A DNA stretch of 64,000 bases from an uncultured Alphaproteobacteria bacterium (GCA_943787225.1 CALSLP010000001.1:840964-904963), one strand, 5' to 3'. Shown: positions 37,939-60,815, counted from the stretch's first letter. The notes: a model not told the origin generated them from the sequence alone. Numbers and translations are program-made.

Positions 37939-37964
37939 TACGCATGCAGCCAGCAATTGGATCA
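37939..37964 (-). promoter_or_regulatory. ECF sigma-E-type promoter candidate (TGATCC-N16-CGTA) upstream of the 2OG dioxygenase gene
   Basis: Minus strand reads TGATCC aattgctggctgcatg CGTA, about 115 nt upstream of the start at 37823. Confidence 0.6.
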
Positions 37965-38036
37965 CACGAACGTGGGCCCAGCGATACGGATCAACTTGGA
38001 GAAGATCTGATTGTTCTTGGCGCCGTATAACGGCTC

Positions 38037-38477
38037 TTACACGTGTTGCTCGCTATTCGGTATATCTTCCAACAAACGGACCATGAGTTCCGTTACCATT
38101 TCTGGATCGTTTTTGAGACTCGATAGTATTTCTTCGACAGTCCTCGTGTCGTCCAATCCTGACCAAATTGCCAATTTTTTTGCACTTGGGCTGGTATAAG
38201 CAATTTCCCAGTTTGAGAACGTAAGTTTTTCAACATTCGACCCACGTATCACTTTGATATCTTGGTGCCGAGTATCTTCAGTAATCTTTTTCATAAGATC
38301 TTTTACTGTACCTTCTTCGCCCTCCAGGACCTGTAGGAACATTCCATCTATAAAAACTAACAGGCCCGTGACGTCGGATAATTTATTTTTCGTACGTGCC
38401 TGACGCAGAATCCCAATCAAATGAGACAGCATCATTTCATTTGTAGCCTTCGATGAGTAATCTAACTGATACAGCAT
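38037..38477 (-). CDS. BLUF-domain blue-light FAD sensor, short stand-alone form
   Basis: MLYQLDYSSKA...ILRQARTKNKLSDVTGLLVFIDGMFLQVLEGEEGTV...DTRH matches the BLUF core (Tyr, Gln, N..ITG, FxQxLEG). Confidence 0.85.
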   Translation of the reverse strand: MLYQLDYSSKATNEMMLSHLIGILRQARTKNKLSDVTGLLVFIDGMFLQVLEGEEGTVKDLMKKITEDTRHQDIKVIRGSNVEKLTFSNWEIAYTSPSAKKLAIWSGLDDTRTVEEILSSLKNDPEMVTELMVRLLEDIPNSEQHV

Positions 38478-38742
38478 GATTATGACCCCTAAGAGAGAAA
38501 TTTCTTATCGGCCAGGAAATTATATTTAGGGCGTTTCAGGGCCGCTCCCATGCAAATGACGTTAACTTGGATCAGCTGAATGCGCAATCTGACCGGGCTG
38601 CCTGGCGATGTGACCAGTGTTATGGGAGCGCGGCGGCAGGTGATCCGCAAATTCCTAGTGCGCTTCAAGGGGCCGAAAGTAGTGTAGAACTTGTTTTGTA
38701 TGGCAGTTATTGGCCTAACCCGAAACCGGTTTGCAGGCTTGG

Positions 38743-39354
38743 TTATTCTGTTTCGATGGTGCCAACAACGGTTAGACCGCCCTTTTCAGAGCGCCGAACA
38801 ATTATGAGCTCTCCTGAGCTGGGATAAACACCGGTAAGCGCAGTGATATTTACCTGATGGGTGACCAGAATAATTGGGCGGCGTAAGTCTTGGTTCTTTA
38901 ACCACGCCTTCAACGCCCTAGTCTGGGGCTTGCGTCGTTCAAAACTTTGGAAGAATGAATTTAGTGCTGGTAGTTCGTTAACAAGACCGAGCTGTAAAAG
39001 TCGTGCTGTTTGCAAACATCGGCACCACTGGCTGGAGAAAACGGGTGCGCTCTCGATACCGTTCACGTGGAACCGATCACCAATTCGCTTAGCCTGAGCG
39101 CGCCCTTCGTCGGAGAGGTTTCTTTGAGTTCTGCAGTCCCCGATAACAAAGTTGTCTGGATCACCGGTTCCTGGAGCGATCGCATGTCGAATAAGCGCAA
39201 GGTGCCCACCCGCCCTGAGTGCCGCCCAAACATCGGCCTGATCTGAAATGGCGGGCTTCTCGAAGAGACAGGACAAGGCGATGGCCATCGCAATAACGGT
39301 CAAGACTTTCAGCCGTATTAAGTGATTTACTGATAACGGATGGTCGCCAAACAT
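38743..39354 (-). CDS. histidine phosphatase family protein (periplasmic, SixA/PGAM-like)
   Basis: Hydrophobic leader followed by LALIRHAIAPGTGDP (RHA/G catalytic motif) and ILVTHQVN. Confidence 0.75.
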   Translation of the reverse strand: MFGDHPLSVNHLIRLKVLTVIAMAIALSCLFEKPAISDQADVWAALRAGGHLALIRHAIAPGTGDPDNFVIGDCRTQRNLSDEGRAQAKRIGDRFHVNGIESAPVFSSQWCRCLQTARLLQLGLVNELPALNSFFQSFERRKPQTRALKAWLKNQDLRRPIILVTHQVNITALTGVYPSSGELIIVRRSEKGGLTVVGTIETE

Positions 39355-39408
39355 CTCAGCCTATCCTCTGAATTAACGGCTCGGGTTCCCCAAAGCGGGA
39401 TTATGAAG

Positions 39409-39434
39409 CGATCCAAAACTAGAATCGGGTCGTA
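39409..39434 (+). promoter_or_regulatory. ECF sigma-E-type promoter candidate (CGATCC-N16-CGTA) upstream of the FAD oxidoreductase / Sel1 / tspO unit
   Basis: Plus strand reads CGATCC aaaactagaatcgggt CGTA, about 30 nt upstream of the ORF. Confidence 0.6.
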
Positions 39435-39464
39435 TAATGCACATAGCTAAGTCTCAGGTTCAAT

Positions 39465-40481
39465 TTGGCAATTTACGAAAAAGACACGAGGGCACACGAA
39501 GTGGCGGCAAAAACGAGCATTGCAATAATAGGGGCCGGGGTGTGCGGTCTTGCGTGCGCCAATCTTTTAAGATCTGAAGGCTATTCGCCGAAAATATTTG
39601 AGAAAAGCCGCGGGATCGGTGGACGCATGGCCACCCGAAGGGCAAAAAATGGGGTCGCTTTCGATCATGGTGCTCAATATGTCACTGCGCGTAACCCAGA
39701 TTTTAAAGCTCTTATGGCGGAGGCGATGCAGGATGGATCTGCCGGCTACTGGTATCCATCTCGAATTGACCCAAATACCGTCATGTCACAAGATTGGATG
39801 GTTGGCCTTCCCGGCATGAGCGGCCTTGTAAAGCCGCTCGCTAACGGGATCGATATTCGTCTTCATACCGAAGTTACCGGCGTCGATCGGGTGTCAAATT
39901 CTTGGTGCATTCGTACTCAGATGAATCCCAATGGTGATATTTTTGATAGGTTAGTGGTGACGGCTCCCGCGCCTCAAGCCCGTGCCTTGCTGGCGTCAGA
40001 GCCCAGCATTGGTAGAGTGCTAGACAGGGTCTCAATTGAGCCTTGTTTGGCCTTGATGGTGGCCTTTGACGATCCGCTAAACGTGAAAATTGATGCTCAG
40101 CGCTGGGACTCGGGTGATCTTGCTTGGGTCGCTCGAAATAGTTCAAAGCCTGAGCGCGACGGCTCCGCAGATTGCTGGGTTGTTCACGCAAGCCCGTCGT
40201 GGAGTGAAAAATACCTCGAACTTGACCGCGACGAAATCGCACAAAAGCTTCTGAGCCTCTTCAAAAGCACGCTTGGCATTGACCTCCCATCGATGAGTCA
40301 CATGAGCGGACATAAATGGCGCTATGCGTTAACGACTTCGCCTTTGGGCAAACCTTTCCTGGAATCCGAAGATAAGTCTCTTTTCGTTGGTGGCGATTGG
40401 TGTATGGGTGCTCGCGTGGAATACGCTTTCGAGAGCGGGCAGGCGATTGCGTCAGCAGTAACTGATTCGTTTAGGAATTAG
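39465..40481 (+). CDS. NAD(P)/FAD-dependent oxidoreductase (renalase/amine-oxidase-like)
   Basis: Dinucleotide fold IAIIGAGVCGLACA...EKSRGIGGRM..FDHGAQY. The track start at 39465 is TTG. GTG 39501 with a GAGGG RBS is an alternative. Confidence 0.8.
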   Translation: MAIYEKDTRAHEVAAKTSIAIIGAGVCGLACANLLRSEGYSPKIFEKSRGIGGRMATRRAKNGVAFDHGAQYVTARNPDFKALMAEAMQDGSAGYWYPSRIDPNTVMSQDWMVGLPGMSGLVKPLANGIDIRLHTEVTGVDRVSNSWCIRTQMNPNGDIFDRLVVTAPAPQARALLASEPSIGRVLDRVSIEPCLALMVAFDDPLNVKIDAQRWDSGDLAWVARNSSKPERDGSADCWVVHASPSWSEKYLELDRDEIAQKLLSLFKSTLGIDLPSMSHMSGHKWRYALTTSPLGKPFLESEDKSLFVGGDWCMGARVEYAFESGQAIASAVTDSFRN

Positions 40482-40522
40482 GATTATTCATGACCAACTG
40501 AATTTATGTTGGTCGACGTAGT

Positions 40523-40906
40523 TTGGCCAGTTTGGCTGTCTCTGACCTGTGTTCCAGGCAACAACGCCCAACGAGTATAGCAACTGAGACTAGTATCTCG
40601 GCATTTGACGTGGTTCGATCCAAAGATACAGAGACGATCGCTTGGATAAAGAAGGGCGCCCAGCAAGGTAACGTGCTCGCTCAATTCAATCTGGGCGGAG
40701 CTTATCTAAAAGGCAACGGCGTCAGCCGGGACACTATCGAAGCTTACAAGTGGTTATTTCTTGCTGCTGACAATGGACACAACGATGCCCGAGCCATTTG
40801 TAATGCGCTCGCGAAAAAGATGGATGCTGGGGCTGTGGTAAAGGCACAGGAACTTGCCAACAATTGGCAGGTAGATTTCAGTAAGACTAGCAAGTGGCGG
40901 CGATGA
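40523..40906 (+). CDS. Sel1-repeat protein
   Basis: GNVLAQFNLGGAYLKGNGVSRDTIEAYKWLFLAADNGHNDA forms Sel1/TPR-like repeats. A lipoprotein-like leader MLVDVVWPVWLSLTC starts at ATG 40506 in another frame, suggesting a 5' frameshift. Confidence 0.65.
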   Translation: MASLAVSDLCSRQQRPTSIATETSISAFDVVRSKDTETIAWIKKGAQQGNVLAQFNLGGAYLKGNGVSRDTIEAYKWLFLAADNGHNDARAICNALAKKMDAGAVVKAQELANNWQVDFSKTSKWRR

Positions 40907-41394
40907 TAAAGCTTGAAACAAGTGGGCACCGAAGCCTCATCGCATTTCTCGTCTTCGCTGGTGCGACGGCTTTCGTCTATATCGTTTCCGGCATCGTTAC
41001 GGCGACCTCTGTTAGCTCCTGGTATCAGACGCTCAACAAGCCCTCTTTCAATCCGCCGGACTGGATCTTTGCGCCGGTTTGGTCTGTGCTCTTTGTAATG
41101 ATTGCGATCGCCGGCTGGATGGCATTGCGCAGGGCAAAAATATATCAGCGACGCCTCGTCCTACTGGTTTTCAGTACTCAGCTCTTACTGAACTGCCTGT
41201 GGTCGGTCCTGTTCTTTGGTTTGCAGTGGGTGGGCACTGCGCTCGTTGAAATTATGTTGCTATGGGTTTCTATCCTTTGGGCAATGTATGTTTTCTGGCC
41301 CATCGATCGGCGGGCAACAATACTTTTTGCTCCGTATGCGTGTTGGGTGACGTTTGCGATTGCTCTCAATGCGGCTATCTGGTCACTAAATTGA
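40903..41394 (+). CDS. tspO: tryptophan-rich sensory protein TspO
   Basis: WYQTLNKPSFNPPDWIFAPVWSVLFVMIAIAGW is the TspO/MBR signature, with five TM segments. Its ATG overlaps the Sel1 stop (ATGA). Confidence 0.9.
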   Translation: MIKLETSGHRSLIAFLVFAGATAFVYIVSGIVTATSVSSWYQTLNKPSFNPPDWIFAPVWSVLFVMIAIAGWMALRRAKIYQRRLVLLVFSTQLLLNCLWSVLFFGLQWVGTALVEIMLLWVSILWAMYVFWPIDRRATILFAPYACWVTFAIALNAAIWSLN

Positions 41395-43816: not shown

Positions 43817-44069
43817 GATTTTCCCTATTGCATACTGATATAGCGCGCTTTTTTGTTGATCCAATAACTGGCTCAAATCGTATTAATGATGTGTTCAGTA
43901 GTGATTATGCAGTAGTTTTCTTAACGGCGCTACTGATTGTCACTTAGTAGCGAACAGTGACCTGAGGGCCACCCAGATTTCCTCCCTGATCTCCGGTGGC
44001 CCTCTACTTCCCGCCAGCCAATAAATGGCTGCTCGTTCGTAAAAGGTCCACATTTGAGAGGAGAGCTTT

Positions 44070-44240
44070 GTGGCCACCAACGCAAAAAAACCCTCGCCTG
44101 ATCACCCGTACCGCGTTTTGAAGCGCAAGGGCCTACGATGTCGCGCAAACTTTATTAGCTCTTGGGAGGGAGAGCGCATATGCAAGAGATGCAAGAACTC
44201 TCATGATTGGCGCAGCGGCACTACACCGTTTGATGACTAA
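44070..44240 (+). CDS. possible 56-aa basic Cys/His-containing protein (below the ORF-track size cut-off)
   Basis: GTG preceded by GAGAGGAGAG at 6-nt spacing. Reads (M)ATNAKKPSPDHPYRVLKRKGLRCRANFISSWEGERICKRCKNSHDWRSGTTPFDD. It fills an otherwise empty 440-bp gap. Confidence 0.35.
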   Translation: MATNAKKPSPDHPYRVLKRKGLRCRANFISSWEGERICKRCKNSHDWRSGTTPFDD

Positions 44241-44312
44241 CCAAAGCCAACGAGAGCAAGTACCTAAGGTGCAACGGAACAATCGGAGCCTCGATTTGGG
44301 TGTCAAAAGTCC

Positions 44313-44927
44313 ATGACAATGAAAACGCGTTGGTGGTGGATCCGGCACGCGCCGGTTGTTAACCCGGAGGGCAAACTCTACGGCCAGCTAGATCTGGACG
44401 TCGATTTCTCTGACGGCAAAAAGCTCGAAGCTTTGGCTAAAATTCTTCCTGATAACGCGGTCTGGGTAACAACATCGTTGCGCCGGGCGAGAGAAACAGC
44501 AAATAGATTGTCTGCAATTACGACGACGGCGCGGTCGATAGATGAGCATGACAATTTGCGCGAACAATCTTTCGGTGACTGGGAGGGTTCCCGTTGGCAG
44601 GATATACCTGCTGCTGTTAGCGACGCATTTTGGAAGGATCCAGCAAAAAATCGTGTTCCAAATGGCGAGAGCTTTGCTGATGTTGTGACGCGCGTAACCG
44701 AGACGGTTGAACAACTTAATACCCACCATACCGGCAGAGATATTGTTGCGGTAACGCATACGGGATCTATTCGCGCTGCAATCACCCACGCCTTAGGAGG
44801 AGATGCACGGGCTGGTTTGTCGTTTCAGCTAGCACCTCTCTCGCTTACACGTATCGACGCGATCCATCAGGATGACAACGTTTGGTGGCGGGTTTCAGGG
44901 GTTAATCTCTTCGGGGATCATGAATGA
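44313..44927 (+). CDS. histidine phosphatase family protein (PGAM/CobC-like)
   Basis: WWWIRHAPV (RHG-type motif), ...SLRRARETA... and VAVTHTGSIRA. Confidence 0.8.
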   Translation: MTMKTRWWWIRHAPVVNPEGKLYGQLDLDVDFSDGKKLEALAKILPDNAVWVTTSLRRARETANRLSAITTTARSIDEHDNLREQSFGDWEGSRWQDIPAAVSDAFWKDPAKNRVPNGESFADVVTRVTETVEQLNTHHTGRDIVAVTHTGSIRAAITHALGGDARAGLSFQLAPLSLTRIDAIHQDDNVWWRVSGVNLFGDHE

Positions 44928-45093: not shown

Positions 45094-45492
45094 GTGGTTT
45101 TTGTAAAAGCCTATGCCATTACTTTGATAGTGTTCCTCGGTCTCGATTTCCTTTGGTTAGGCTTTGTTGCACGAGGATTTTACGCGTCCCAGTTGGGCGA
45201 TCTTATGCGTGAAAACATAAACTACTTGGCGGCTGGCATTTTCTATCTCGCCTACGTCGCGGGCATTGTGTTTTTTGCGATTGCTCCGGCTTTGGCGGAG
45301 GGAAGTTGGCGCAAGGCTGTCATCCATGGCGCTATTCTCGGGCTTCTCGCCTATGGCACCTATGACATGACAAATATGGCCACGCTAAACAATTGGCCTA
45401 TTACCATGAGCTTCGTTGACATAATTTGGGGTGGCGTACTCACTGGTCTTTCGGGACTTCTTGGATTCTTGATCGTACGAGCTTTACCTTAA
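45094..45492 (+). CDS. DUF2177 family membrane protein
   Basis: 132-aa ORF with 4 TM segments. LDFLWLGFVARGFYASQLGDL and YGTYDMTNMATLNNWP match my recollection of DUF2177. Confidence 0.65.
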   Translation: MVFVKAYAITLIVFLGLDFLWLGFVARGFYASQLGDLMRENINYLAAGIFYLAYVAGIVFFAIAPALAEGSWRKAVIHGAILGLLAYGTYDMTNMATLNNWPITMSFVDIIWGGVLTGLSGLLGFLIVRALP

Positions 45493-45634: not shown

Positions 45635-45880
45635 TTACAACGCGCGGGAATGGTTCTGCACTTGCTTGTGTGCTTCGCTGTCCCGCAAGGCATCGATATC
45701 TGCCTGGGTTTCCCACTCCGCATAAGAAATATATTCGCCTGGCGCATCCTCGCATTTCAGGAGTTGCTCCGAACGGCACCCTTTTTGCTTAATCATCAAA
45801 GGCGCACAATCTTCCTTCCAAATCCCCTCCGCTTCGCTTGCCTGGCCCGGATCGACTGCCACGTGTATCACACCTAACAA
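45635..45880 (-). CDS. antibiotic-biosynthesis-monooxygenase (ABM) domain protein
   Basis: VIHVAVDPGQ...GCRSEQLLKCEDAPGEYISYAEWETQADIDA fits the ABM ferredoxin-like fold. An ATG just upstream (ATGACGG) is out of frame by one base, so the 5' end is uncertain. Confidence 0.6.
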   Translation of the reverse strand: MLGVIHVAVDPGQASEAEGIWKEDCAPLMIKQKGCRSEQLLKCEDAPGEYISYAEWETQADIDALRDSEAHKQVQNHSRAL

Positions 45881-46039: not shown

Positions 46040-46438
46040 TTAGATTGTCGTGCCTTCTCGCTGGATCGCCAGCCATACCTTTGTATTTTTGCCAACTTTG
46101 GCAGGCACAACGCGCCAATACATGATAAAGGGTGTCCCGTCTTTTTTGTAGTTTATTGCCTTGCCTTCGAAACGGCCGCCCGTCTTCAGTGCCGTGCTTA
46201 GACGGGCTATCACTGCATTATCGGTCGCTGGGCCTTGCAAAATACGCGGCGTCTTCCCGAGGACCTCATCCGGTGAGAAGCCCGTCAGCTTCTTAAACGC
46301 CTTATTCGCATAGATGATCTTTGAATCTTTGGTCGCATCCGTAATCAGGATCGAGTCAAAACTGTTTTCGGCGAGCGCTTTTAGGACACTGAGGCTCACA
46401 TCTGCCCCTTCTAGTACTTTTTCGACGGATTTTGCCAT
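46040..46438 (-). CDS. short LOV-like PAS protein lacking the adduct-forming cysteine
   Basis: SILITDATKDSKIIYANKAFKKLTGFSPDEVLGKTPRILQGPATD...INYKKDGTPF...WLAIQRE aligns residue-for-residue with the LOV core. However, GxNCRFLQG is replaced by GKTPRILQG, with Pro at the Cys position. Confidence 0.7.
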   Translation of the reverse strand: MAKSVEKVLEGADVSLSVLKALAENSFDSILITDATKDSKIIYANKAFKKLTGFSPDEVLGKTPRILQGPATDNAVIARLSTALKTGGRFEGKAINYKKDGTPFIMYWRVVPAKVGKNTKVWLAIQREGTTI

Positions 46439-46557: not shown

Positions 46558-46583
46558 TACGCGTCTTCCAAGGATTTAGATCA
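46558..46583 (-). promoter_or_regulatory. ECF sigma-E-type promoter candidate (TGATCT-N16-CGTA) upstream of the LOV-like gene
   Basis: Minus strand reads TGATCT aaatccttggaagacg CGTA. Confidence 0.55.
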
Positions 46584-46690: not shown

Positions 46691-48133
46691 TTAGCTCTGC
46701 TTTCGCGCCTTTAGCTCGGCGTACGCATCCAAGGCACGCTGCCTTGCCCATTTGTGATCGACTAGCGGTTCCGGGTACCCCTCAATTCGAACCCCGCTTT
46801 CCCATGGCGCGTGCACGTGCTTGTCGGGCAGTTCAGCGATTTCGGGTACCCATTTTCGGACATAGGTTCCTTCTGGATCGAATTTTTGACCCTGCAATAT
46901 GGGGTTGAAAATTCGAAAATAGGGCGATGCATCCGCTCCAGAGCCGGAAACCCACTGCCAACTTGCCGAGTTGTTCGCGAGATCGGCATCGACGAGAGTG
47001 TCCCAGAACCAACGAGCTCCCTCCTGCCAGGGAATAAGCAAGTGTTTGGTCAAAAATGAGGCCACGATCATTCGAACGCGATTGTGCATCCAACCGGTTT
47101 GCCATAGCTGGCGCATACCGGCATCGACGATTGGGTAGCCGGTTTTACCTGATTGCCACGCTTCAACTGCCTGCTGATCCTCCCGCCACGGGAAATCCGC
47201 AAATTTGTTATTGAACGATGACTCGGTTATGTGCGGCCAATGCCATAACAAGTGATAGGAAAACTCACGCCAAACCAATTCACGAAGATAAGACGTGCGG
47301 CCTTTACGAGTGTTTTCATAGGTGTCTGTGGACTGATGGATAAAGTGCCAGATCTCTCGTGGACTGATCTCGCCGTAATGGAGGTGCGGTGACAGTGCCG
47401 ATGTACCCTTTCTGTCGGGCCGATCGCGATCTTTGTCATAAGTGGCAAGGCGATCCTCAACAAAATCGTTAAGTTTTGAAAATGCGCCGGTCGCACCTGG
47501 TTGCCAATGCTCTTGAAATCCTGAAGCCCAATTGGGTGCGGTAGGCCGTAACGCCCAGTTGTTGAGCTGCTCGCTCTTCGGCCACGTCTTGGGCGGGGTT
47601 AGTTTGCCCGGTGCAGGGAGAGGATCCCTCACAGGCTCCATTGCGAGACACGCCTTGTAGAAGGGCGTGAATACGCGGAACGGGTCGCCTGATTTGGTTT
47701 TTACGGCTTCGGGTTCGAATAATAACGCACCGCCAAATCGTCGACATTCTATGCCTTTATCCATCAGATATTCGGAAATGATTTTTTCTTCGGCAGCGTT
47801 TTCCGACTCGTAGCGGCGGGTGAAATAAATTTCCTTGGCGCCAATTTCATCAACCACGCTGGCAAGCACGTCTTGCGCTTGTCCCGCGGCGCAGGATCAA
47901 CCGGCTCTGCATGGTTTGAAGAGCGTTATCCAGTTCAGCCAGGCTGCCTTCGAGCCACCAACGGCTTGCCCCGCCCGGTGTCCAATCGGCCCGGTGTTTG
48001 TTCGCCGTATATGAAGAGGGGAACGACCGGCGCGCCGCTTTGCGACGCCGCATGCAGTGCCGCATGGTCGCTCGATCCGCAAGTCTTGACGAAACCAGAG
48101 AATAATGGGATCGGCCTGTGAAATACTAGGCAT
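46691..48133 (-). pseudogene. phr: deoxyribodipyrimidine (CPD) photolyase with about 3 frameshifts in the first 280 nt
   Basis: The main ORF 46691-47869 carries the FAD-binding domain (WREFSYHLL, WMHNRVRMIVASFL, NNSASWQWVSGSGADASPYFRIFNP). The N-terminal alpha/beta domain is spread over three frames: ILWFRQDLRI, then SDHAALHAASQSGAPVVPLFIYGE, then GGASRWWLEGSLAELDNAL..SRLILRRG. Confidence 0.8.
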
Positions 48134-48274: not shown

Positions 48275-48766
48275 TCATGATCCCTCTTTCGGCTCAACAT
48301 GAGCCTCGACCAACCATAAACTTTTGTCGGTAGCTCGCGAAATCTAAGTGAACATGTCAGCGGTGTCATCGTCGCCGAGTTCGGCCGCCTCCTTAGAAGC
48401 GTCGCGCACCGTTTTAGCGAATACAGACAAGGCGTCAGAGACTGCATCGACGTGACTGGATTGAGTATGGATATCCATAGGATACTCTGCCAAGCTTGAT
48501 GTTTGCTCTGCCACCCGCACGGTGCCATTGGCTTGACCGCCAAGGGCGATGATCCTCTCGGCCATCATATCGCTTTCAGCTAACACCTCTGCTGCAATCT
48601 GGTCGAACAGCTCATGCAGGCCGATAAAGCTCGGCCCCCGCACATTCCAGTGGGCCTGCTTGATCTGGGTTTACAAATCAATGGAATCCACAAGTCTCGG
48701 CTGAATTATTGACACCATGTCTGACCGGATATTTTCCGACATGTCGTTGCGTGTTCTGATCATCAT
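48275..48766 (-). pseudogene. dps: Dps family ferritin-like DNA-protection protein with two in-frame stops
   Basis: A single frame reads MMIRTRNDMSENIRSDMVSIIQPRLVDSIDL-TAA(48671-48673)-TQIKQAHWNVRGPSFIGLHELF...DDDTADMFT-TAG(48344-48346)-ISRATDKSLWLVEAHVEPKEGS. The stops replace the Tyr and Glu expected in Dps. Confidence 0.75.
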
Positions 48767-50368: not shown

Positions 50369-50463
50369 GATGGGTTCTCCAAAGGTCGCGGGAAGGATGG
50401 GGATGGCTTACAGGAATACGGGGGCCGCGCCGATGGCAAGACCCCCGTCGTCTGAGCGGCGGA

Positions 50464-50973
50464 TCACATGGTCGGGGGCATGATCACCGTGTCGATGACA
50501 TGGATAACACCGTCGGAGGCGACCACGTCGGCCTTGACCACATTGCGTTGTCATCTTGACGCCCTTCATGGCGTCGACCGAAACCTTACTGCCCTGCACG
50601 GTGGCGACTTTCAGGGACTTGCCGGCGATATCGCTCGCCATGACCTTCCCGGGCAGCACGTGACAGGTGAGGATCGCGGCTAGCTTGCTTTTGTTTTCGG
50701 GCTTGAGCAGGGATTCCAAAGTACCGGCTGGTAGCTTGGCAAAGGCCGCGTCGGTCGGGGCGAAAACCGTAAACGGACCCTTTCCTTTTAGCGTTTTAAC
50801 CAGCCCGGCAGCCTTAACGGTTGCAACGAGGGTGTTGAAAGAGCCAGCCGACACAGCAGTATCGACGATATCTTTCTTATGCTTCCGTGACCGTCTGCGT
50901 TGACAGCGACGGCACCAAACATGAGAGGGAGAGTTACGGCGAATACCGCTATGCGGGAGAGGAAGGTTGACAT
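50464..50973 (-). pseudogene. secreted fasciclin (FAS1) domain protein with at least 2 frameshifts
   Basis: The signal peptide [26 protein letters not shown] (track ORF 50788-50994) is in one frame. The FAS1 core [24 protein letters not shown]...[11 protein letters not shown] is in another. The C-terminus [25 protein letters not shown] is in a third. Confidence 0.75.
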
Positions 50974-51096: not shown

Positions 51097-51122
51097 TACG
51101 GCGTCGCTCCACTTCCAGATCA
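51097..51122 (-). promoter_or_regulatory. ECF sigma-E-type promoter candidate (TGATCT-N16-CGTA) upstream of fasciclin / ubiX / folE
   Basis: Minus strand reads TGATCT ggaagtggagcgacgc CGTA. Confidence 0.55.
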
Positions 51123-51294: not shown

Positions 51295-51783
51295 TCACTG
51301 GGTTTCGCAATAGTCAAGCAACGCCTTTACCATTCCCACGTAACCGGTACATCGACACAAATGTCCAGACAACATATCGCGGATCTCTTCTTCGGTGGGG
51401 CGAGGATTTTCTCTCAAGAATGCGGTCAATGACATCAGTATTCCTGGTGTGCAGTAACCACATTGCAGAGCGTGATGCTTTCTGCAGGCCTTTGCGCAGA
51501 TCCGAGAGCTCGCCTTTTTCATCTGCTAAGCTCCCCGACGTTTCGATCGTGCATCCATCTGCTTGAACGGCCAATGTCAGGCAAGCTCTTGCTATCTCGC
51601 CATAATGAGAAGCGTGCATGCCCCACAAACCCCGTGCTCGCAGCCAACATGGCAGGTCGTTATGCCAATTTCATGAGTGAGAAAATCAGTCAGCAGCATC
51701 CGGGGTTCGGCGTGGCCGGAAACCTTTTGCCCATTGAGAATAAATGAAACGGGGTGGAGGGCGTTTTTCTGAAGGACTGCCAT
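51295..51783 (-). pseudogene. (2Fe-2S)-binding protein, CoxS / aldehyde-oxidase small-subunit type, with 2 frameshifts and no partner subunits
   Basis: MAVLQKNALHPVSFILNGQKV...CHVGCEHGVCGACTLL (end of track ORF 51592-52206). This is followed by ACLTLAVQADGCTIETS (ORF 51314-51628), and then [13 protein letters not shown]...HLCRCTGY (ORF 51295-51522). Confidence 0.75.
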
Positions 51784-51818: not shown

Positions 51819-51844
51819 TACGTTCCCCGCTTCGCCGTGGATCA
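51819..51844 (-). promoter_or_regulatory. ECF sigma-E-type promoter candidate (TGATCC-N16-CGTA) upstream of the 2Fe-2S protein gene
   Basis: Minus strand reads TGATCC acggcgaagcggggaa CGTA, about 35 nt upstream of ATG 51783. Confidence 0.6.
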
Positions 51845-51918: not shown

Positions 51919-51944
51919 TGATCCATTCGGGAAGCGATGTCGTA
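51919..51944 (+). promoter_or_regulatory. ECF sigma-E-type promoter candidate (TGATCC-N16-CGTA) upstream of the membrane protein / NmrA-like / GNAT unit
   Basis: Plus strand reads TGATCC attcgggaagcgatgt CGTA. It is divergent from the site at 51819-51844. Confidence 0.6.
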
Positions 51945-51982: not shown

Positions 51983-52276
51983 GTGCGAGACCTTTTTGCT
52001 AGTGTAATGAACGAAAATAAGAACCCGTTACAGAGCCTTCCCAAAATACAGCGATACCAAATCATGGTCATTTTATCGCTCATGTGGAGTACCATTTTTA
52101 GCGTTGCAATTGGCTCTTGGTACTGGTGGGGCGAATTAGTTATCGGCCACGTGGCCGTGGCAACTGGCGTTCTTTTCACCGGATTAACGTTCCGCGCGGC
52201 GCGCAAGAAGACGCATAGGGATATGTATCGCGCTACGGATGGATCGGCGCGTTACGACGATATTTGGGGCGGTTGA
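51983..52276 (+). CDS. small membrane protein (2 TM), hypothetical
   Basis: GTG with an AAGGAGAGG RBS, downstream of the promoter candidate. Reads IMVILSLMWSTIFSVAIGSWYWWGELVIGHVAVATGVLFTGL. The track start at 51857 lies upstream of the predicted transcription start. Confidence 0.5.
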   Translation: MRDLFASVMNENKNPLQSLPKIQRYQIMVILSLMWSTIFSVAIGSWYWWGELVIGHVAVATGVLFTGLTFRAARKKTHRDMYRATDGSARYDDIWGG

Positions 52277-53346: not shown

Positions 53347-53372
53347 TGATCCACCGGATCTGCCGACGCGTA
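53347..53372 (+). promoter_or_regulatory. ECF sigma-E-type promoter candidate (TGATCC-N16-CGTA) upstream of two small hypothetical genes
   Basis: Plus strand reads TGATCC accggatctgccgacg CGTA, about 25 nt upstream of ATG 53398. Confidence 0.6.
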
Positions 53373-53397: not shown

Positions 53398-53571
53398 ATG
53401 TTCAAACACCTCTCAAAGCTATTCGATCACGCGGAACTAAGTGGTCTCGTAAACCGTTATGAGCGCCTACGAACGAATGGGGAATTAGCCGAAGCGGAAG
53501 CAATACGAGCGAATATTTCCCATATCCTCGTAAATGGGCGAAAGAACTATCCCTTGAATCCACGGAGGTGA
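53398..53571 (+). CDS. hypothetical 57-aa protein
   Basis: ATG with a GGAG RBS. The track alternative start is 53386. No recognisable family. Confidence 0.4.
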   Translation: MFKHLSKLFDHAELSGLVNRYERLRTNGELAEAEAIRANISHILVNGRKNYPLNPRR

Positions 53572-53600: not shown

Positions 53601-54023
53601 TTGCCCGCAGAGATATGCATAATGGATCATCACAATCAATCTTTTATAGAACGTGCCTCGAGGCGTATGCGTGCCTTCCTGATCGTGTCGGGGTTAGTGC
53701 TACCTGCGGGCATAATTTCGCCCGCGAAATCCGCTGATCTCGAATGCGCTGCCCGTGATCGCCTTGCGAAGCAGCTTCAGGTAGAATTTTCAGAGCTACC
53801 TACCGGGGTAGGCGTTACATCGGCTGGCACTTTGATAGAACTTTGGAAAGCCGATGGTGGAGAGACATGGACGTTAATGGTGTCATTACCAGACGGCACC
53901 AGTTGTATTGTTGGCTCCGGTAACAATTGGATGCCGATGGCTTCTAAAGGGGCATCAGCCGTTGCACTAGGTATGGCAAAGCTAGTCCCAGAAACTCGTG
54001 TCGACGTAAAGAGCCGGCCCTAA
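53601..54023 (+). CDS. hypothetical secreted protein
   Basis: An internal signal peptide MRAFLIVSGLVLPAGIISPAKSA is followed by a ~100-aa domain containing 2 Cys. No recognisable family. Confidence 0.45.
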   Translation: MPAEICIMDHHNQSFIERASRRMRAFLIVSGLVLPAGIISPAKSADLECAARDRLAKQLQVEFSELPTGVGVTSAGTLIELWKADGGETWTLMVSLPDGTSCIVGSGNNWMPMASKGASAVALGMAKLVPETRVDVKSRP

Positions 54024-55175: not shown

Positions 55176-55900
55176 TCATACCCGACATGGCTTCGGTCTG
55201 AGCCGGTCGATACGACGCATGATGTCGGCGAAAAGGTCACGGTGGATGGCGATCTCAGCCACCTAGAACATGACGTAGCGCCCGTGGTGGACGATCTGCG
55301 CGCCGATCTTGATGAGCTTTTCGCGCAGCGTCGTCAGTGACCACTTGTTCACGGTATCGGGCAGCGCGAGCGGCCTCATGAGGTTGCCGAGATTGCGGGC
55401 GAGTGCGTGGAGGTGGAGCCTGACCTCGTTGTTGCGGGACTTCTGGCACGATAGCCGGGTCCACTTGATGGCGTTCTTGCCTTCCTTGATGTGCTGTTCC
55501 GCCGTGCCTCGTTGATTGTAGAAGGCGACGACGCGCTTGGGCGATCGAGACAAATTGGTGAAGGTGAAGCCGACGCGCTGATACAGGTCGCCCGGATGCC
55601 CTCGGACCTTGGCGACCACGCGACGGGGCTTCGTCCAGCTAGCGGTTTGGTAGCTGAAGTTTGCGTGATACCGGCGCACATCGTTCGGTGGCCGGCCGAC
55701 CGGTCGCTTGAGCAGTTGCGCGATGCTGTCCCGGAGCACCTTGTTGGCCGGCAGGCGGATCGTATAACTGAAGGCTTCGGCCTCGAGCAACTTTTACATC
55801 CCGGGTAATGCAAACGCCGCGTCTCTCTGGAAGTGGCGTCGAAACAGCCTGTCTCGGTAACGGGCGACAGCTTCGTCGAGTTCACTGTAGGAGCCTAGAC
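55176..55900 (-). mobile_element. IS1380-family transposase remnant (C-terminal ~240 codons, two in-frame stops, 5' truncated)
   Basis: Reads SELDEAVARYRDRLFRRHFQRDAAFALPGM-TAA(55794-55796)-KLLEAEAFSYTIRLPANKVL...VVAFYNQRGTAEQHIKEGKNAIKWTRLSC...HGRYVMF-TAG(55263-55265)-VAEIAIHRDLFADIMRRIDRLRP. This matches the IS1380 transposase C-terminal half as I recall it. No N-terminal half and no terminal inverted repeats were found. Confidence 0.75.
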
Positions 55901-56118: not shown

Positions 56119-56791
56119 TCAAATTCCTATCATTGGTTGGAAAAGTCGCGGCACCCATTCCTTAAACTTTATGGGCGCATCAGTGATGACCAGGCAGATA
56201 CAGTCTGTTGCCGTGTCTGCTATCGGTTTATGGACGAGTTCTTCATCCACGTCTTCCATATCGCCCGCGCTAAAGAGCGACAATTCATCCTGATAACTAC
56301 CAGAGAGAACGAGCGTCAACTCTCTTCCGCGATGTCCGTGACTGGGGACCGGTTTTCCTGCTTCTAATGCGCAACAGACGTGCACGCGCGCTTTTATCAG
56401 CGGTTTCAATCAAGTGTTGATAAGCCCCGCCGCCAATAGATTTCCATGGGACATCATCCACATCGTGCCCCACATACTCACGAAGGACGCGTGGAAATGT
56501 TGTGCTAACAATCGCGCGTTTATCCAACGAGAGCTGGGTATTCCCGGATGCTGCCTCGCTAGAAGGTTGATCGATTCTGGCAAGAACGTGGTCGAGGGCA
56601 TCCAATGACATCCGTTCGTCAGGCATGTCCGCAAACAGGATGCCACCGATTGTTTCAGCAAGTTCGAGTGTCCTCCGACATTCGGGGCATAATGAGAGGT
56701 GCGATGCTACCGCAAGGCTCCAGGTCTCCGAAAGTGAGCCCGCTGCATAGCTCAGTAGCAGATCGTCATGTGGATGATGGTTTACTGTCAC
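56119..56791 (-). pseudogene. chrR: anti-sigma-E factor ChrR (zinc ASD plus cupin domain), split by a 1-nt insertion near 56355
   Basis: The N-terminal ORF 56297-56791 carries the ZAS motif H-LSL-C-PE-C. The C-terminal ORF 56119-56409 carries the cupin AGKPVPSHGHRGRELTLVLSG. Deleting one base in CGCATTAGAAGCAGG restores LLRIEAGKPVPSHGH. Confidence 0.8.
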
Positions 56792-56821
56792 TGTAAATCT
56801 CCTAGCGCATGGCGCAATTTT

Positions 56822-57370
56822 TCAAAAGATAATCTCAAGACGTGATTTGACCGTCCCAAGGGGAATGCCGATGGCGTCCGATATTTCCTGGTGTGATAGG
56901 CCTTCGATAAACGAAAGCTGGACCACCTCCCGCTGATCTTCGGGCAGATCAGCAATCGAGCGTTTTACGCGCTCGACGATTGTCGATTGCTCCATATTCT
57001 GAAGGGGCGTTGGCGAGTCGTCCGGCACGAGCATTGGGTCATCAGGGTCGAGGGCCGGTCGTTTCTCCTTCCGCAGTCGATCGATCCTCCGGTTTCTCGC
57101 AATGGTAAATATCCACGTGACCGCAGAGGCCTTTTTGGGGTCGAATTGACCTGCTTTACGCCACACCGTAATGAACGTCTCCTGCGTGATTTCTTCAGCT
57201 AACGCAGGATCAGAGCCGATCTTCATCATGTAAGCCTTCACGCGGGGCCCTAATGCCGCAAATAACTTCGCAAAGGCGTCGCGATCTTGTGTCGAGCCAA
57301 CTCGCTCAAGCAGATCGTTTTCGGAAAGCGGCACTTTAATGTTTTCCTCTATGGAAACTTGCCACTTCAT
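56822..57370 (-). CDS. rpoE: ECF sigma-70 family factor, RpoE (ChrR-partnered) type
   Basis: Region 2 is FAKLFAALGPRVKAYMMK...AEEITQETFITVWRKA. Region 4 is LPEDQREVVQLSFIEGLSHQEISDAIGIPLGTVKSRL. Start set at Met 57370, downstream of the predicted transcription start. Confidence 0.85.
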   Translation of the reverse strand: MKWQVSIEENIKVPLSENDLLERVGSTQDRDAFAKLFAALGPRVKAYMMKIGSDPALAEEITQETFITVWRKAGQFDPKKASAVTWIFTIARNRRIDRLRKEKRPALDPDDPMLVPDDSPTPLQNMEQSTIVERVKRSIADLPEDQREVVQLSFIEGLSHQEISDAIGIPLGTVKSRLEIIF

Positions 57371-57474
57371 AACTTCACTGCGAGCTACAGTCAATCCGAT
57401 CACTGCAAGATTTGAAGCGAGCAAGACCCCTGGATGATCTGAATTGGAATGAAGCATGGTTGCCATGTGCGTGC

Positions 57475-57500
57475 TACGCATCTAATTGGCTTTTGGATCA
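57475..57500 (-). promoter_or_regulatory. autoregulatory sigma-E-type promoter candidate (TGATCC-N16-CGTA) upstream of rpoE-chrR
   Basis: Minus strand reads TGATCC aaaagccaattagatg CGTA. Confidence 0.65.
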
Positions 57501-57633: not shown

Positions 57634-57659
57634 TGATCTAAGTATTTTCGGGCTGCGTA
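57634..57659 (+). promoter_or_regulatory. ECF sigma-E-type promoter candidate (TGATCT-N16-CGTA) upstream of the BoxB-like gene
   Basis: Plus strand reads TGATCT aagtattttcgggctg CGTA, 30 nt upstream of ATG 57689 and divergent from the rpoE promoter. Confidence 0.6.
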
Positions 57660-57688: not shown

Positions 57689-59113
57689 ATGACCATCGAT
57701 TTGACTGCTCGAATACCCAATAACGTCAATCTCGCCGAAGACCGTCGCCTTCAAAGGGCCTTGGAGTCTTGGCAACCGACATTCGTTAATTGGTGGAAGG
57801 ATATGGGTCCTGAAGGAGCGCTTAATCACGATATCTATTTGAGAACGGCAGTTGACGTGGCGGCAGAGGGCTGGGCGCATTTCGATTATGTGAAGATGCC
57901 GGAATACCGTTGGGGTATATTTGTCGCGCCACCGGTCGAAGGCCGGACAATTGGTTTCGGTGAGCACAAAGGGCAAGCGGTCTGGAATGAAGTGCCCGGG
58001 GAATATCGGTCTTCGCTTCGTCGCTTGATCGTTACGCAGGGCGATACGGAGCCTGCCTCCGTTGAACAGCAACGAATGCTCGGTCTCACCTGTCCTTCTC
58101 TTTATGACCTGCGAAACCTATTCCAGGTTAACTGCGAGGAGGGCCGCCACTTGTGGGCCATGGTTTACCTGCTACACGCTTATTTTGGTCGCGATGGCCG
58201 TGAGGAGGCGGAGGCGCTGCTGGAACGTCATTCGGGTGACCCGGACAAGCCGCGTATTCTCGGGGCTTTTAATGAACAGACGCCAGACTGGCTTTCCTAC
58301 TTTATGTTTACGTTCTTCACCGACCGGGATGGTAAGTTCCAACTGTCCTCCCTAGCTGAATCAGCCTTCGATCCGTTAGCCCGAACCTGTCAGTTTATGC
58401 TGACGGAGGAGGGGCACCATATGTTCATCGGCACGACCGGTGTTGCGCGCGTGGTCACCCGCACCTGCCAGGTCATGAAGGACCTAAAGACCGATGATCC
58501 GGAGCGTATTCGATCAGCGGGCGCAATTGATCTGCCAACCTTGCAGCGTTACCTCAATTTTCATTACAGCGTGTCTCTTGATCTCTTTGGTCAGGAGATA
58601 TCAACTAATGCAGCCAACTACTTCACGGCGGGCCTCAAGGGACGTTTTGAGGAGAGCAAAATCGATGACGATCATCATCTAAACGATGACACATATTCGA
58701 TCACCATGTTTGACGATGATCAGATCAAGAAAATCGATTGCAATGCGCTGGTCGCCGTCAACGAACGCCTGAGGGATGATTATGTAACGGACTGTCAATT
58801 GGGCGTCGATCGCTGGAATAAAATATTGCGGAAATACAAGATCGATTCCCGGCTGGCTCTCCCGCACCGCGGCTTTAACCGATATGTCGGTTCTTTTTCT
58901 GGTGCGACGATAACGCCTGATGGAGACCTCATCACTGCGGCCGAGTGGACAAAGGGCAAAGATGACTGGTTGCCATCAGAGCACGACCGCGCCTTTGTCA
59001 TTTCGCTCCAGAAGCCTGTCACAGAGCCCGGAAAGATGGCTGGATGGATCGCTCCACCCGGTCGTGGGATCGACGGGCGCCCGCTAGACTTCGAATATGT
59101 CAAGTTCCACTGA
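57689..59113 (+). CDS. BoxB-like di-iron protein (benzoyl-CoA 2,3-epoxidase oxygenase-component family), orphan
   Basis: MTIDLTARIPNNVNLAEDRRLQRALESWQPTFVNWWKDMGPEG...VTQGDTEPASVEQQR...NCEEGRHLWAMVYLLH...MLTEEGHHMF closely follows the BoxB sequence pattern I recall, including the two ExxH di-iron motifs. No boxA or boxC lies nearby. Confidence 0.75.
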   Translation: MTIDLTARIPNNVNLAEDRRLQRALESWQPTFVNWWKDMGPEGALNHDIYLRTAVDVAAEGWAHFDYVKMPEYRWGIFVAPPVEGRTIGFGEHKGQAVWNEVPGEYRSSLRRLIVTQGDTEPASVEQQRMLGLTCPSLYDLRNLFQVNCEEGRHLWAMVYLLHAYFGRDGREEAEALLERHSGDPDKPRILGAFNEQTPDWLSYFMFTFFTDRDGKFQLSSLAESAFDPLARTCQFMLTEEGHHMFIGTTGVARVVTRTCQVMKDLKTDDPERIRSAGAIDLPTLQRYLNFHYSVSLDLFGQEISTNAANYFTAGLKGRFEESKIDDDHHLNDDTYSITMFDDDQIKKIDCNALVAVNERLRDDYVTDCQLGVDRWNKILRKYKIDSRLALPHRGFNRYVGSFSGATITPDGDLITAAEWTKGKDDWLPSEHDRAFVISLQKPVTEPGKMAGWIAPPGRGIDGRPLDFEYVKFH

Positions 59114-59174
59114 GATGATATCGAGGCGAGAAAGATTTTTTTGAGCGTATTCTTTCGCGACGCGCTAGACGCGG

Positions 59175-60707
59175 CTAGACCTCGCGACTTAGGAATCTAG
59201 CTGCGTCTTCGCGCACAGCCTTTTTTCTTTCCTCGCTCATCCGATCCCAAGTGCGATAGACAGGCCCCAAACGCGGATTATCACCCAGATGTTCTCTATT
59301 CCTCGCCATAAAGTCCCAATAGAGATAATTGAACGGACAAGCGTCGGGCCCTTCTTTTTCTTTAACCTTGTAACGGCAAGATGAACAGTAATCGGACATC
59401 TTGTTGATGTAATTGCCGCTCGCTGCATAGGGCTTTGAGCCTAACAAGCCACCATCGGCAAACTGACTCATGCCAAGCGTATTGGGCAGTTCGACCCATT
59501 CATAAGCGTCGGCATAAACAGCGAGATACCATTCATGCACAGCTTTGGGATCCACACCGGCGAGCATGGCAAAATTACCCGTGACCATAAGTCTCTGAAT
59601 GTGATGGGCGTAGGCTTCATCTCGCGTTTGTTCTATGCAGGCCCGGAGGCAAGCCATGTCAGTGTCAGCGGACCAGTAGAAGGCCGGCAGTTGCTTTGAA
59701 TTTCCAAAAAAGTTTAGGTCCACATAGTCCGGCATTTTTAGCCAGTAAATACCGCGCACATATTCTCGCCATCCAATGATCTGCCGGATGAAACCCTCTG
59801 CCGAATTCAACGGCACGCGCCCTTTGCGGTATTCCTCTTCTATGAGCCGGCAAACTGTGAGCGGGTCAAGCAAGCCTGCATTGATGTAAAGCGAAAGGAA
59901 GGCATGAAAGAGGAACCGCTCGTCTTTTAGCATGGCGTCCTGGTAATCGCCGAAGGAGGGTAGTCCGCTGTCGATGAATTGCTGGAGTGCTGCTTCGGCT
60001 TCCCGGCGCGTGACCGCGAACCAAAACGGCTCTAGCGTGCCAAAATGATCGGTAAAGCGGTCTGATACCAGGGCAAGGACGTCCTCGGTAATAGCGTCGG
60101 GTTCAAAACGTTTTGGACCGACGAAGTCGAGATCTTTTCCCGCAGGCTTTCTATTCTCCGCATCGAAATTCCATTTACCGCCTTCCGGCTTGTCTCCATC
60201 TATAAGAAGCCCGGTCTTGCGGCGCATGTCGCGATAGAAATATTCCATACGGAGCTGTTTGCGGCCATGCGCCCATCCAGCAAATTCGGAGCGGGAACAC
60301 AAAAATCGGTCGTCATCGAGAATGGTCACAGGGACCGACAGTCGATTTGCCAGCTCCTCGAAATTTCTTCTCAGGCGCCATTCTCCTGGTTCCGTGACAA
60401 GGACGCGATCGCAACCGTGATCCTTCACAGCACGCTCGATTTCGCCGACCAGCGATCCTGAGTTCTTCGGATCATCCAACTTAAAGTAATTAACGGACCA
60501 TCCGGCTTCTCTGAGCTCCTCCGCGAAATGGCGCATTGCCGAAAAGAGAAAGGCTATTTTTTTCTTATGGTGAGGAACATAAGTAGCCTCGTCTACCACT
60601 TCTGACATCAGGACCACGTCTTGAGCTGGGTCAGCGGCGTTGAGAGACGAAATCATTGGCGAGAGTTGGTCGCCCAAGATCACGACAAGAGTATTATCAG
60701 TTTTCAA
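59175..60707 (-). CDS. FeS-containing cryptochrome/photolyase family protein (PhrB/CryB-like, (6-4) photolyase group)
   Basis: 510-aa ORF with N-terminal LVVILGDQLS. The C-terminal Cys pattern CSSC-x12-C fits the [4Fe-4S] ligands of the FeS-BCP group. TTG start. Confidence 0.8.
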   Translation of the reverse strand: MKTDNTLVVILGDQLSPMISSLNAADPAQDVVLMSEVVDEATYVPHHKKKIAFLFSAMRHFAEELREAGWSVNYFKLDDPKNSGSLVGEIERAVKDHGCDRVLVTEPGEWRLRRNFEELANRLSVPVTILDDDRFLCSRSEFAGWAHGRKQLRMEYFYRDMRRKTGLLIDGDKPEGGKWNFDAENRKPAGKDLDFVGPKRFEPDAITEDVLALVSDRFTDHFGTLEPFWFAVTRREAEAALQQFIDSGLPSFGDYQDAMLKDERFLFHAFLSLYINAGLLDPLTVCRLIEEEYRKGRVPLNSAEGFIRQIIGWREYVRGIYWLKMPDYVDLNFFGNSKQLPAFYWSADTDMACLRACIEQTRDEAYAHHIQRLMVTGNFAMLAGVDPKAVHEWYLAVYADAYEWVELPNTLGMSQFADGGLLGSKPYAASGNYINKMSDYCSSCRYKVKEKEGPDACPFNYLYWDFMARNREHLGDNPRLGPVYRTWDRMSEERKKAVREDAARFLSREV

Positions 60708-60754
60708 CTAAGCGTGCCTTAATGGCTAAACCAAAAACTCGACATCATAAAAGA

Positions 60755-60780
60755 TACGTAACCCGTCCTCTGTTGGATCG
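60755..60780 (-). promoter_or_regulatory. ECF sigma-E-type promoter candidate (CGATCC-N16-CGTA) upstream of the FeS photolyase gene
   Basis: Minus strand reads CGATCC aacagaggacgggtta CGTA. Confidence 0.6.
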
Positions 60781-60789
60781 CCTTCGATG

Positions 60790-60815
60790 TGATCGGACCG
60801 GCGTCGAACCACGTA
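60790..60815 (+). promoter_or_regulatory. ECF sigma-E-type promoter candidate (TGATCG-N16-CGTA) upstream of the gpx / ubiG / DUF3429 / DUF2256 / DUF4149 unit
   Basis: Plus strand reads TGATCG gaccggcgtcgaacca CGTA. Its -35 hexamer lies 9 bp from the -35 of the divergent site at 60755-60780. Confidence 0.6.

Follow-up and report, generated by a model that had tools for sequence, protein, structure and literature searches.

A predicted photo-oxidative stress island built around an ECF11 sigma factor and its anti-sigma factor ChrR in an uncultured marine alphaproteobacterium

Introduction

In Rhodobacter sphaeroides, the extracytoplasmic function (ECF) sigma factor RpoE directly drives 15 genes, including phrA, FolE2, rpoHII, cycA, cfaS and RSP_1087–1091 (PMC7074977, PMC5507510), and the core regulon of the ECF11 family according to Dufour et al. 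2008, as relayed second-hand in PMC5507510, is listed as phrB, cfaS, RSP_1087, 1088, 1090 and 1091. In Rhodobacter capsulatus, rpoE–chrR adjoins a glutathione peroxidase–CryB operon that is induced by singlet oxygen, and tspO is induced too (PMC7074977). Promoters recognized by this family have been published for two gammaproteobacteria: those of PSPTO_1043 in Pseudomonas syringae read TGATCC-N16-CGTA, according to chromatin immunoprecipitation sequencing and quantitative reverse transcription PCR (PMC5507510), and those of RpoE2 in Shewanella oneidensis read TGATCC and CGTA(A/T)T, with transcription starts mapped at a downstream A (PMC4336711). Here we analyze a stretch of 64,000 nt from an uncultured alphaproteobacterium (GCA_943787225.1 CALSLP010000001.1:840964-904963), referred to as the window and numbered from its first letter, in which the same bipartite element recurs around an rpoE–chrR pair. 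We consider, with a probability of about 0.9, that the region from about 35.8 to 64 kb is a chromosomal photo-oxidative stress island, the sigma-E/ChrR regulon of an uncultured marine alphaproteobacterium from a Rhodospirillales-like lineage of metagenome-assembled genomes (MAGs).

Results

An element matching the ECF11 promoter consensus

Twelve strict copies of GATC-N17-CGTA (that is, TGATCC-N16-CGTA) lie between genes in the right-hand part of the window, together with one relaxed copy, as follows:

37939–37964, minus strand: sigma-E-type promoter TGATCCAATTGCTGGCTGCATGCGTA, 115 nt 5′ of a 2-oxoglutarate (2OG)-Fe dioxygenase gene
39409–39434, plus strand: sigma-E-type promoter (CGATCC...CGTA) for an amine oxidase–Sel1–TspO operon
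43857–43882, plus strand: strict sigma-E-type promoter TGATCCAATAACTGGCTCAAATCGTA, ahead of a leader, a 56-codon open reading frame (ORF), a histidine phosphatase gene and a DUF2177 gene
46558–46583, minus strand: sigma-E-type promoter for a LOV-like PAS protein and an ABM monooxygenase
48938–48963, minus strand: relaxed copy, TGAACC-N16-CGTA, upstream of dps
51097–51122, minus strand: sigma-E-type promoter for fasciclin–ubiX–folE, probably also for the decayed dps and phr
51819–51844, minus strand: sigma-E-type promoter ahead of a CoxS-like remnant
51919–51944, plus strand: sigma-E-type promoter for a 97-aa membrane protein, an NAD(P)H-binding protein and a GNAT protein
53347–53372, plus strand: sigma-E-type promoter for two small unknown proteins
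57475–57500, minus strand: predicted autoregulatory sigma-E promoter of rpoE
57634–57659, plus strand: sigma-E-type promoter for a solo boxB
60755–60780, minus strand: sigma-E-type promoter for a FeS-BCP/CryB-type photolyase-related protein
60790–60815, plus strand: sigma-E-type promoter, back to back with 60755 (−), for glutathione peroxidase, ubiG and DUF3429

The consensus of the 12 strict sites is TGATC(C/T)A(A)-N14-CGTA(A/T)nA. We compared it with the published ECF11 promoters by means of a matrix derived only from the 15 sites of PMC5507510 and PMC4336711, in which the boxes were scored and the spacer was left neutral; a matrix derived from the sites of the window itself was set aside, as it overfits the spacer. 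With a cut-off of 13 bits, the published-site matrix gave 14 matches in the window (mean of shuffles 1.7, maximum 5): the 13 sites listed above, strict and relaxed, and an intragenic copy at 37743–37768 (+). The latter, which scores 18.6 bits, falls within the 5′-terminal part of the 2OG dioxygenase gene carried by the opposite strand and is aimed at the 3′ end of the gene for a BLUF protein; it could be a chance match or an antisense promoter.

An earlier sequence-only reading of the window had listed 11 of the strict sites and the relaxed one, all of which we recovered at the same positions and on the same strands; the list was incomplete, the strict and high-scoring site at 43857–43882 (+) having been omitted. 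The consensus that it had given for this type of regulon, TGATC/CGTA, equals the one published for ECF11. It had placed one copy ahead of an ECF sigma/ChrR operon, and site 57475–57500 (−) does precede rpoE; its assignment of the regulator to the RpoE–ChrR type agrees with the analysis of the two proteins given below.

The regulator pair

The presumed regulators are encoded by two overlapping genes:

56119–56791, minus strand: chrR, with zinc anti-sigma and cupin domains, overlapping the rpoE stop
56788–57466, minus strand: rpoE, the ECF11 sigma factor

The sigma factor contains regions 2 and 4 only (Pfam Sigma70_r2 and Sigma70_r4_2), scores 105–108 bits on TIGR02937 (cutoff 42.9) and has R. 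sphaeroides RpoE as its best solved relative (2Q1Z_A, E 1.4e-42, 149 bits), the next one being SigK (7e-22). The ORF that follows aligns to residues 1–136 of R. sphaeroides ChrR (2Q1Z_B, E 3.7e-22), and its cupin part continues in another frame. All eight zinc ligands of ChrR (H6, H31, C35, C38, H141, H143, E147 and H177, as listed in the Donohue review, PMC6852236) are present in the translated frames: H6 and the motif HLSLCPEC in the alignment with 2Q1Z_B, then HGHRGRE and, 30 residues further on, a histidine in the second frame. Taken alone, the frameshifted chrR ORF of the window reaches 109.5 bits on TIGR02451, under the cutoff of 124.5, whereas the intact ChrR of L087, a Logan contig that shares 99.5% identity with the window, displays a Cupin_7 domain and reaches 217.6 bits. 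The chrR start (56791) overlaps the corrected rpoE stop (56788), and the same 4-nt overlap is found in L087, where the intact products are 225 and 223 aa long. The closest characterized relative and the adjacent ChrR thus support an assignment of the sigma factor to ECF11 (RpoE–ChrR type).

Scanning GTDB genomes with the island sigma factor returned 80 loci, all alphaproteobacterial, with Devosia, Henriciella, Marinicauda and Parvibaculum as cultured relatives, and in 51 of the 80 the motif lies upstream of rpoE. Autoregulation of rpoE–chrR is accordingly predicted from the family context and from site 57475–57500 (−). Could the motif nevertheless be read by another regulator, either an ECF sigma factor encoded elsewhere or a DNA-binding repressor or activator? 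Only 64 kb of the genome are visible, ECF paralogs are common, and the link to RpoE comes from sequence comparison. However, the motif is asymmetric, always faces a gene and displays the spacing of −35 and −10 elements; moreover, its sequence equals the demonstrated consensus of ECF11 sigma factors, and it precedes rpoE itself in the majority of the loci just mentioned. We therefore regard this possibility as improbable.

Frameshifts in the window and genuine decay

Both regulator genes are interrupted in the window: in rpoE, an additional C at 56836 puts the ~15 final codons out of frame, and in chrR, an additional C at 56364 divides the gene between two frames. These are two of 12 single-base indels (47886, 47988, 48073, 49687, 49895, 50542, 50552, 50884, 51004, 51022, 56364 and 56836) that are private to the window when it is compared with L087 and with L007, a MAG contig of 96% identity. 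The ten others, which fall between 47.9 and 51.0 kb, affect, among others, the fasciclin gene (50542, 50552 and 50884) and ubiX (49895), and three 1-nt insertions break the photolyase gene. If the rpoE and chrR lesions were genuine, the two genes would be pseudogenes and the promoters relics of a dead regulon, a reading that could also invoke the decay of dps and of the CoxS-like gene, seen in every strain examined. Yet the 99.5% and 96% relatives agree with each other and have both regulator genes intact, and the promoter boxes are perfectly kept. Furthermore, the housekeeping gene polA (29070–31932) is also split in the window, with similar breaks in long-read-style ENA contigs from the same population, but is open over 940 aa in an Illumina-type contig from that population. 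Since close relatives lack the frameshifts and polA behaves likewise, the rpoE and chrR frameshifts are almost certainly assembly errors, probably of long-read origin; true pseudogenes were judged unlikely, and a dead regulon is very improbable.

Genuine decay is nonetheless visible at two promoters. In L087 and L007 as in the window, dps has an in-frame TAA where a conserved Tyr is expected, and it seems to be decaying together with its degenerate TGAACC promoter; the CoxS-like gene is fragmentary in L087 too.

Statistics, placement and conservation of the sites

The two strands of the window contain 16 matches to GATC-N17-CGTA, as compared with 1.71 ± 1.37 (largest value 5) in 100 dinucleotide shuffles of the window, none of which reached 16. 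When the gap was varied from 8 to 27 nt, there were 16 matches at 17 nt and 0–5 at each other gap; the excess is thus confined to one rigid spacing, as expected for −35/−10 elements. Besides the 12 intergenic sites, the matches include four located in ORFs, at 4124 (−), 21865 (+), 28270 (+) and 37744 (+), in agreement with the chance expectation of ~1.7 per window. Within the island (35.5–64 kb), of which 78% is coding and 22% non-coding, 12 of the 13 strict matches are wholly non-coding according to a refined coding map (binomial P ~1e-7). The relaxed copy is non-coding likewise, so that the overlap of these 13 sites with the coding map is zero. The gene that each site faces lies on the same strand, with 8–187 nt between CGTA and the first start codon; the exceptional case is the 43857 (+) site, 187 nt from the 56-codon ORF and 430 nt from the first annotated gene.

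The fixed spacing claimed by the sequence-only reading is thus borne out, as is its statement that intergenic copies are missing from bases 1 to 35.4 kb; it was also right that the sites are intergenic and point into genes.

The boxes are also kept in relatives. The closest loci belong to uncultured marine MAGs labelled Alphaproteobacteria or Rhodospirillaceae (96, 82, 76 and 75% identity). In L008–L010, where the genes are ~70% identical in nucleotide sequence (sigma identity among the relatives with kept boxes, 59–82%), TGATC(C/T)...CGTA is kept with different spacers upstream of (i) rpoE, (ii) the 97-aa protein and (iii) a 97-aa paralog. More specifically, the 51919 (+) motif is kept upstream of the 97-aa orthologs or paralogs in L007–L010; the motif precedes ubiX–folE–phr in L008; and it lies ~85 nt upstream of the ortholog of the histidine phosphatase gene (followed by DUF2177) in L009 and L010. 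For the 57-aa ortholog, a motif is found directly upstream in L007 and L008 only, the nearest one in L009 and L010 being ~346 nt away, ahead of an intervening 97-aa gene. The motif precedes a photolyase-related gene in L015 and L018, and it also accompanies the fasciclin, glutathione peroxidase and DUF2177 genes that recur near rpoE in more distant loci. Such phylogenetic footprinting, in which the boxes outlast the sequences around them, favours a function for the sites.

In view of these data, we give next to no credence to the idea that the matches arise by chance or from composition, for instance in GATC-rich DNA: it accounts well for the four copies inside ORFs, but not for 16 matches where 1.7 are expected, nor for an excess at N17 only, for the crowding of the strict matches into the non-coding 22% of the island, or for boxes kept in diverged relatives. 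Equally little speaks for copies of a mobile or repeated element (miniature inverted-repeat transposable element or repetitive extragenic palindrome) holding both boxes, despite the transposase remnant in the island and the adjoining tRNA integration hot spot, since the 14-nt inner spacers show the 25% pairwise identity of random sequences (maximum 57%), the flanks are unrelated and orthologous sites in relatives keep the boxes only.

A probably leaderless rpoE message

The rpoE ATG (57466) lies 8 nt past CGTA in the window, and in 45 of the 51 loci with a motif upstream of rpoE an in-frame ATG is found 8–9 nt past CGTA, followed by an open frame of 29–66 codons. The stretch between this ATG and the conserved part of the sigma factor is poorly conserved, and the length differences between the clade of the window and L008/L009 are multiples of three. 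This suggests that, across Alphaproteobacteria, the rpoE mRNA starts at the ATG and is leaderless, the protein having a variable N-terminal tail; the message of the window is probably leaderless. The conserved position of the ATG fixes the start-site distance independently, as expected if CGTA is a −10 box, and in this sense the 45 loci serve as a comparative substitute for start-site mapping. We also considered a second, sigma-70-type promoter inside the rpoE leader, with a conserved TTGAC(A/T) as its −35 element, and rejected it: from one lineage to another, the spacing to the putative −10 element varies by exactly 3 nt and the frame stays open, so that the "leader" stretch is coding. In the searchable literature we found no specific description of a leaderless ECF11 rpoE, only a general remark on leaderless predicted ECF promoters.

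Packing of the sites around rpoE

In the 49 loci that are 18 kb or longer, the median number of strict sites within ~10 kb on each side of rpoE is 3 and the maximum 9, reached in L007 and L008, which belong to the clade of the window. The sequence around rpoE in the window is limited to 17 kb and holds 8 sites, the overall figure being 13 promoters in 28 kb; in L007, two further sites lie just past the position of the right end of the window. Clustering around rpoE is therefore normal and is about threefold stronger in the clade of the window. The packing described as unusual by the sequence-only reading is indeed dense, but only in degree, the alphaproteobacterial median being already 3.

Transcription units and candidate members

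Gene identities in the window were obtained by Pfam and NCBIfam profile scans. The units behind the sites, and the features between them, are the following, from left to right:

35445–35521, plus strand: tRNA-Arg(CCG), left border of the island, followed by a Rieske oxygenase; no promoter site found
37074–37823, minus strand: 2OG-Fe(II) dioxygenase (PF10014)
between the 37939 (−) and 39409 (+) units: genes for a BLUF protein and a histidine-phosphatase-like protein; no promoter site
39501–41394, plus strand: operon for a flavin amine-oxidoreductase-like protein (326 aa), a Sel1-repeat protein and TspO
between the TspO operon and the 43857 (+) unit: DUF1499, Fpg/Nei and truncated enoyl-CoA hydratase genes; no promoter site
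within 43883–44312, plus strand: structured leader of ~180 nt after the 43857 promoter, with an unusually stable fold (z −3.76)
44070–44240, plus strand: 56-codon Cys-rich ORF with a good ribosome-binding site
44313–44927, plus strand: histidine phosphatase, behind the 43857 promoter
45094–45492, plus strand: DUF2177, behind the same promoter and 3′ of the histidine phosphatase gene
45635–45862, minus strand: ABM monooxygenase, behind the 46558 promoter
46040–46438, minus strand: LOV-like PAS protein, behind the 46558 promoter
46691–48130, minus strand: class I cyclobutane pyrimidine dimer photolyase (5′ end at 48130 estimated; 479 aa and intact in L087)
48344–48769, minus strand: dps with in-frame TAA, behind the relaxed copy and followed by the class I photolyase gene
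49045–50972, minus strand: fasciclin-domain protein, UbiX flavin prenyltransferase and GTP cyclohydrolase I
about 51314–51783, minus strand: degraded remnant of a CoxS-like [2Fe-2S] gene
51983–52276, plus strand: 97-aa membrane protein of unknown family
53398–53571 and 53622–54023, plus strand: two small unknown proteins, behind the 53347 promoter
55263–55790, minus strand: truncated DDE transposase remnant, downstream of chrR; a PNPOx-like gene also lies 3′ of rpoE–chrR
57689–59113, plus strand: BoxB, benzoyl-CoA 2,3-epoxidase subunit B, no boxA or boxC nearby
59175–60707, minus strand: FeS-BCP/CryB-type (DPRP) photolyase-related protein
60852–61412, 61460–62233 and 62230–62712, plus strand: glutathione peroxidase, ubiG and DUF3429

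From Rhodobacter, the kinds of members to be expected include photolyase, CryB-type protein, glutathione peroxidase, GTP cyclohydrolase and TspO. The sequence-only reading took several members, which it left unnamed, for undescribed; the first four of these kinds are already known in Rhodobacter (PMC7074977), and others do look lineage-specific. A photolyase sits behind sigma-E-type promoters; the 326-aa amine oxidase and UbiG are not orthologs of cfaS or RSP_1090/1091, and no rpoH, cfaS or RSP_1090/1091-type gene is visible in the 64-kb window. Homologs of cfaS and RSP_1090/1091 may lie elsewhere in the genome. In three more distant relatives (L011, L012 and L014), the gene divergent from rpoE is an FAD-oxidoreductase-like ORF of ~450–470 aa, RSP_1091-like as judged by eye.

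The gene divergent from rpoE in the window is the solo boxB. Its product (845 bits on TIGR03225, 757 bits against 3PER) has its nearest other relatives, of 80% identity, in boxC–boxB clusters with CoA ligases and with no motif upstream, and in L008–L010 boxB is missing from the interval between rpoE and the photolyase-related gene. The gene thus appears to have been inserted and to have its own sigma-E box now, and it looks like a lineage-specific member. No part of the window matches BoxC; we considered whether the enoyl-CoA hydratase fragment of 157 aa might be a BoxC remnant brought in together with boxB, and rejected this (25% identity, E 0.003). The ubiX/ubiG pair, the 2OG dioxygenase and the LOV-like protein look like lineage-specific members as well. 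The LOV-like protein reads GKTPRILQG where the motif GxNCRFLQ is expected, and is therefore devoid of a photoactive, adduct-forming cysteine.

The small conserved proteins are further candidate members of the regulon. The 97-aa one has no Pfam or NCBIfam match; it is a two-helix membrane protein (…NPLQSLPKIQRYQIMV…DDIWGG). The loci L007–L010 carry one or two copies of it, one of them at 2475–2744 of L007, and every copy has a sigma-E box of its own.

Note that the window has ~345 nt more than L009 and L010 between the 43857 promoter and the phosphatase gene. A scan for terminators and sigma-70 promoters in 43.0–46.7 kb gave nothing above shuffles, and an Rfam scan of the whole window matched the tRNA-Arg only, indicating that no known small RNA or riboswitch lies behind any of the promoters.

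At the left border, tRNA-Arg(CCG) is the point at which other strains diverge, and an integrase/resolvase element is found between the tRNA gene and the island in contigs of other samples (L001, L004, L095 and L096); the GC content is lower to the right of the tRNA gene. The DDE transposase remnant covers profile positions 235–411 of 435, has a GC3 of 0.83 and is also present in L007 and L087.

Discussion

How the island would work

By analogy with its family, the system may be pictured as follows. The ECF11 sigma factor (RpoE, or sigma-E) would be sequestered at rest by the zinc-dependent anti-sigma factor ChrR, both encoded by the island. Singlet oxygen or related photo-oxidative signals would lead to the removal of ChrR, presumably by proteolysis, and the free sigma-E would guide RNA polymerase to TGATCC (−35) and CGTA (−10), separated by a 16-nt spacer. 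Transcription from the promoter of rpoE–chrR itself, probably yielding a leaderless mRNA that begins at the ATG 8 nt past CGTA, would establish a positive feedback, and the 11 further strict copies and the decayed one would drive the neighbouring units. The products would be two photolyase-family proteins, GTP cyclohydrolase I, UbiX, UbiG, glutathione peroxidase, TspO, the LOV-like protein, the solo BoxB, the 2OG dioxygenase and several small membrane proteins. The statistics, placement and orientation of the motif, the identity of sigma-E and ChrR, and the conservation of the boxes in relatives are direct observations; the inducing signal, the proteolysis of ChrR and actual transcription are inferred from the family.

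Four points weigh against this picture: (i) the promoters are predictions from sequence; (ii) the 1-nt insertions in rpoE and chrR, if real, would cripple both proteins; (iii) the genes behind two of the promoters, dps and the CoxS-like one, are decayed, so that not every site need be useful today; and (iv) an ECF11 paralog encoded outside the visible 64 kb could share the motif.

More tentatively, the locus may exemplify an ECF regulon that grows in cis beside a tRNA integration hot spot, in a block with the sigma/anti-sigma pair at its centre, where arriving genes, such as the solo boxB, gain TGATCC-N16-CGTA and unused ones, such as dps and the CoxS-like gene, decay. This would be coupled with a generally leaderless alphaproteobacterial rpoE, whose first codon, fixed 8–9 nt past the −10 box, would force a variable and unconserved N-terminal tail. 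We would not rate this combined scheme above a working idea, somewhat less probable than its negation.

For a marine alphaproteobacterial lineage that is uncultured, the window provides a predicted sigma-E/ChrR regulon that is compact and nearly complete, with 13 promoters on one clonable fragment. It also points to candidate functions of an extended regulon, namely the solo BoxB epoxidase, ubiX/ubiG, the PF10014 dioxygenase, the cysteine-less LOV-like protein, and the 97-aa and 57-aa proteins, and the 45 loci mentioned above suggest that a leaderless design is general among the alphaproteobacterial rpoE genes of ECF11.

Comparison with known ECF11 systems

The system is a dense new instance of the well-studied ECF11 sigma-E/ChrR family and involves no new mechanism or kind of regulation. 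With the R. sphaeroides regulon it shares homologous sigma and anti-sigma factors with the zinc ligands kept, the TGATCC/CGTA promoter type, and photolyase and GTP cyclohydrolase members (PMC7074977); the site upstream of rpoE matches the autoregulation known for the family. The two differ in that the N-terminal tail of the island sigma factor is ~40 aa longer than that of R. sphaeroides RpoE, and in that R. sphaeroides has rpoHII, cycA, cfaS and a divergent RSP_1087–1091 operon, whereas the window has the solo boxB at the rpoE-divergent position. In R. capsulatus, as in the window, a CryB-type gene and a glutathione peroxidase gene lie near rpoE–chrR, and the tspO of the window lies within the island; compared to the R. 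capsulatus locus, the units of the window each have their own sigma-E box and form a much larger cluster. The gammaproteobacterial ECF11 regulons (PSPTO_1043 in P. syringae, RpoE2 in S. oneidensis and SigmaE–ChrR in Vibrio cholerae) have an identical promoter consensus and likewise count a periplasmic glutathione peroxidase, a photolyase-related protein and photolyases among their members. Judging from locus tags, however, the targets in P. syringae and S. oneidensis are scattered over the genome, while those of the window are packed around their regulator.

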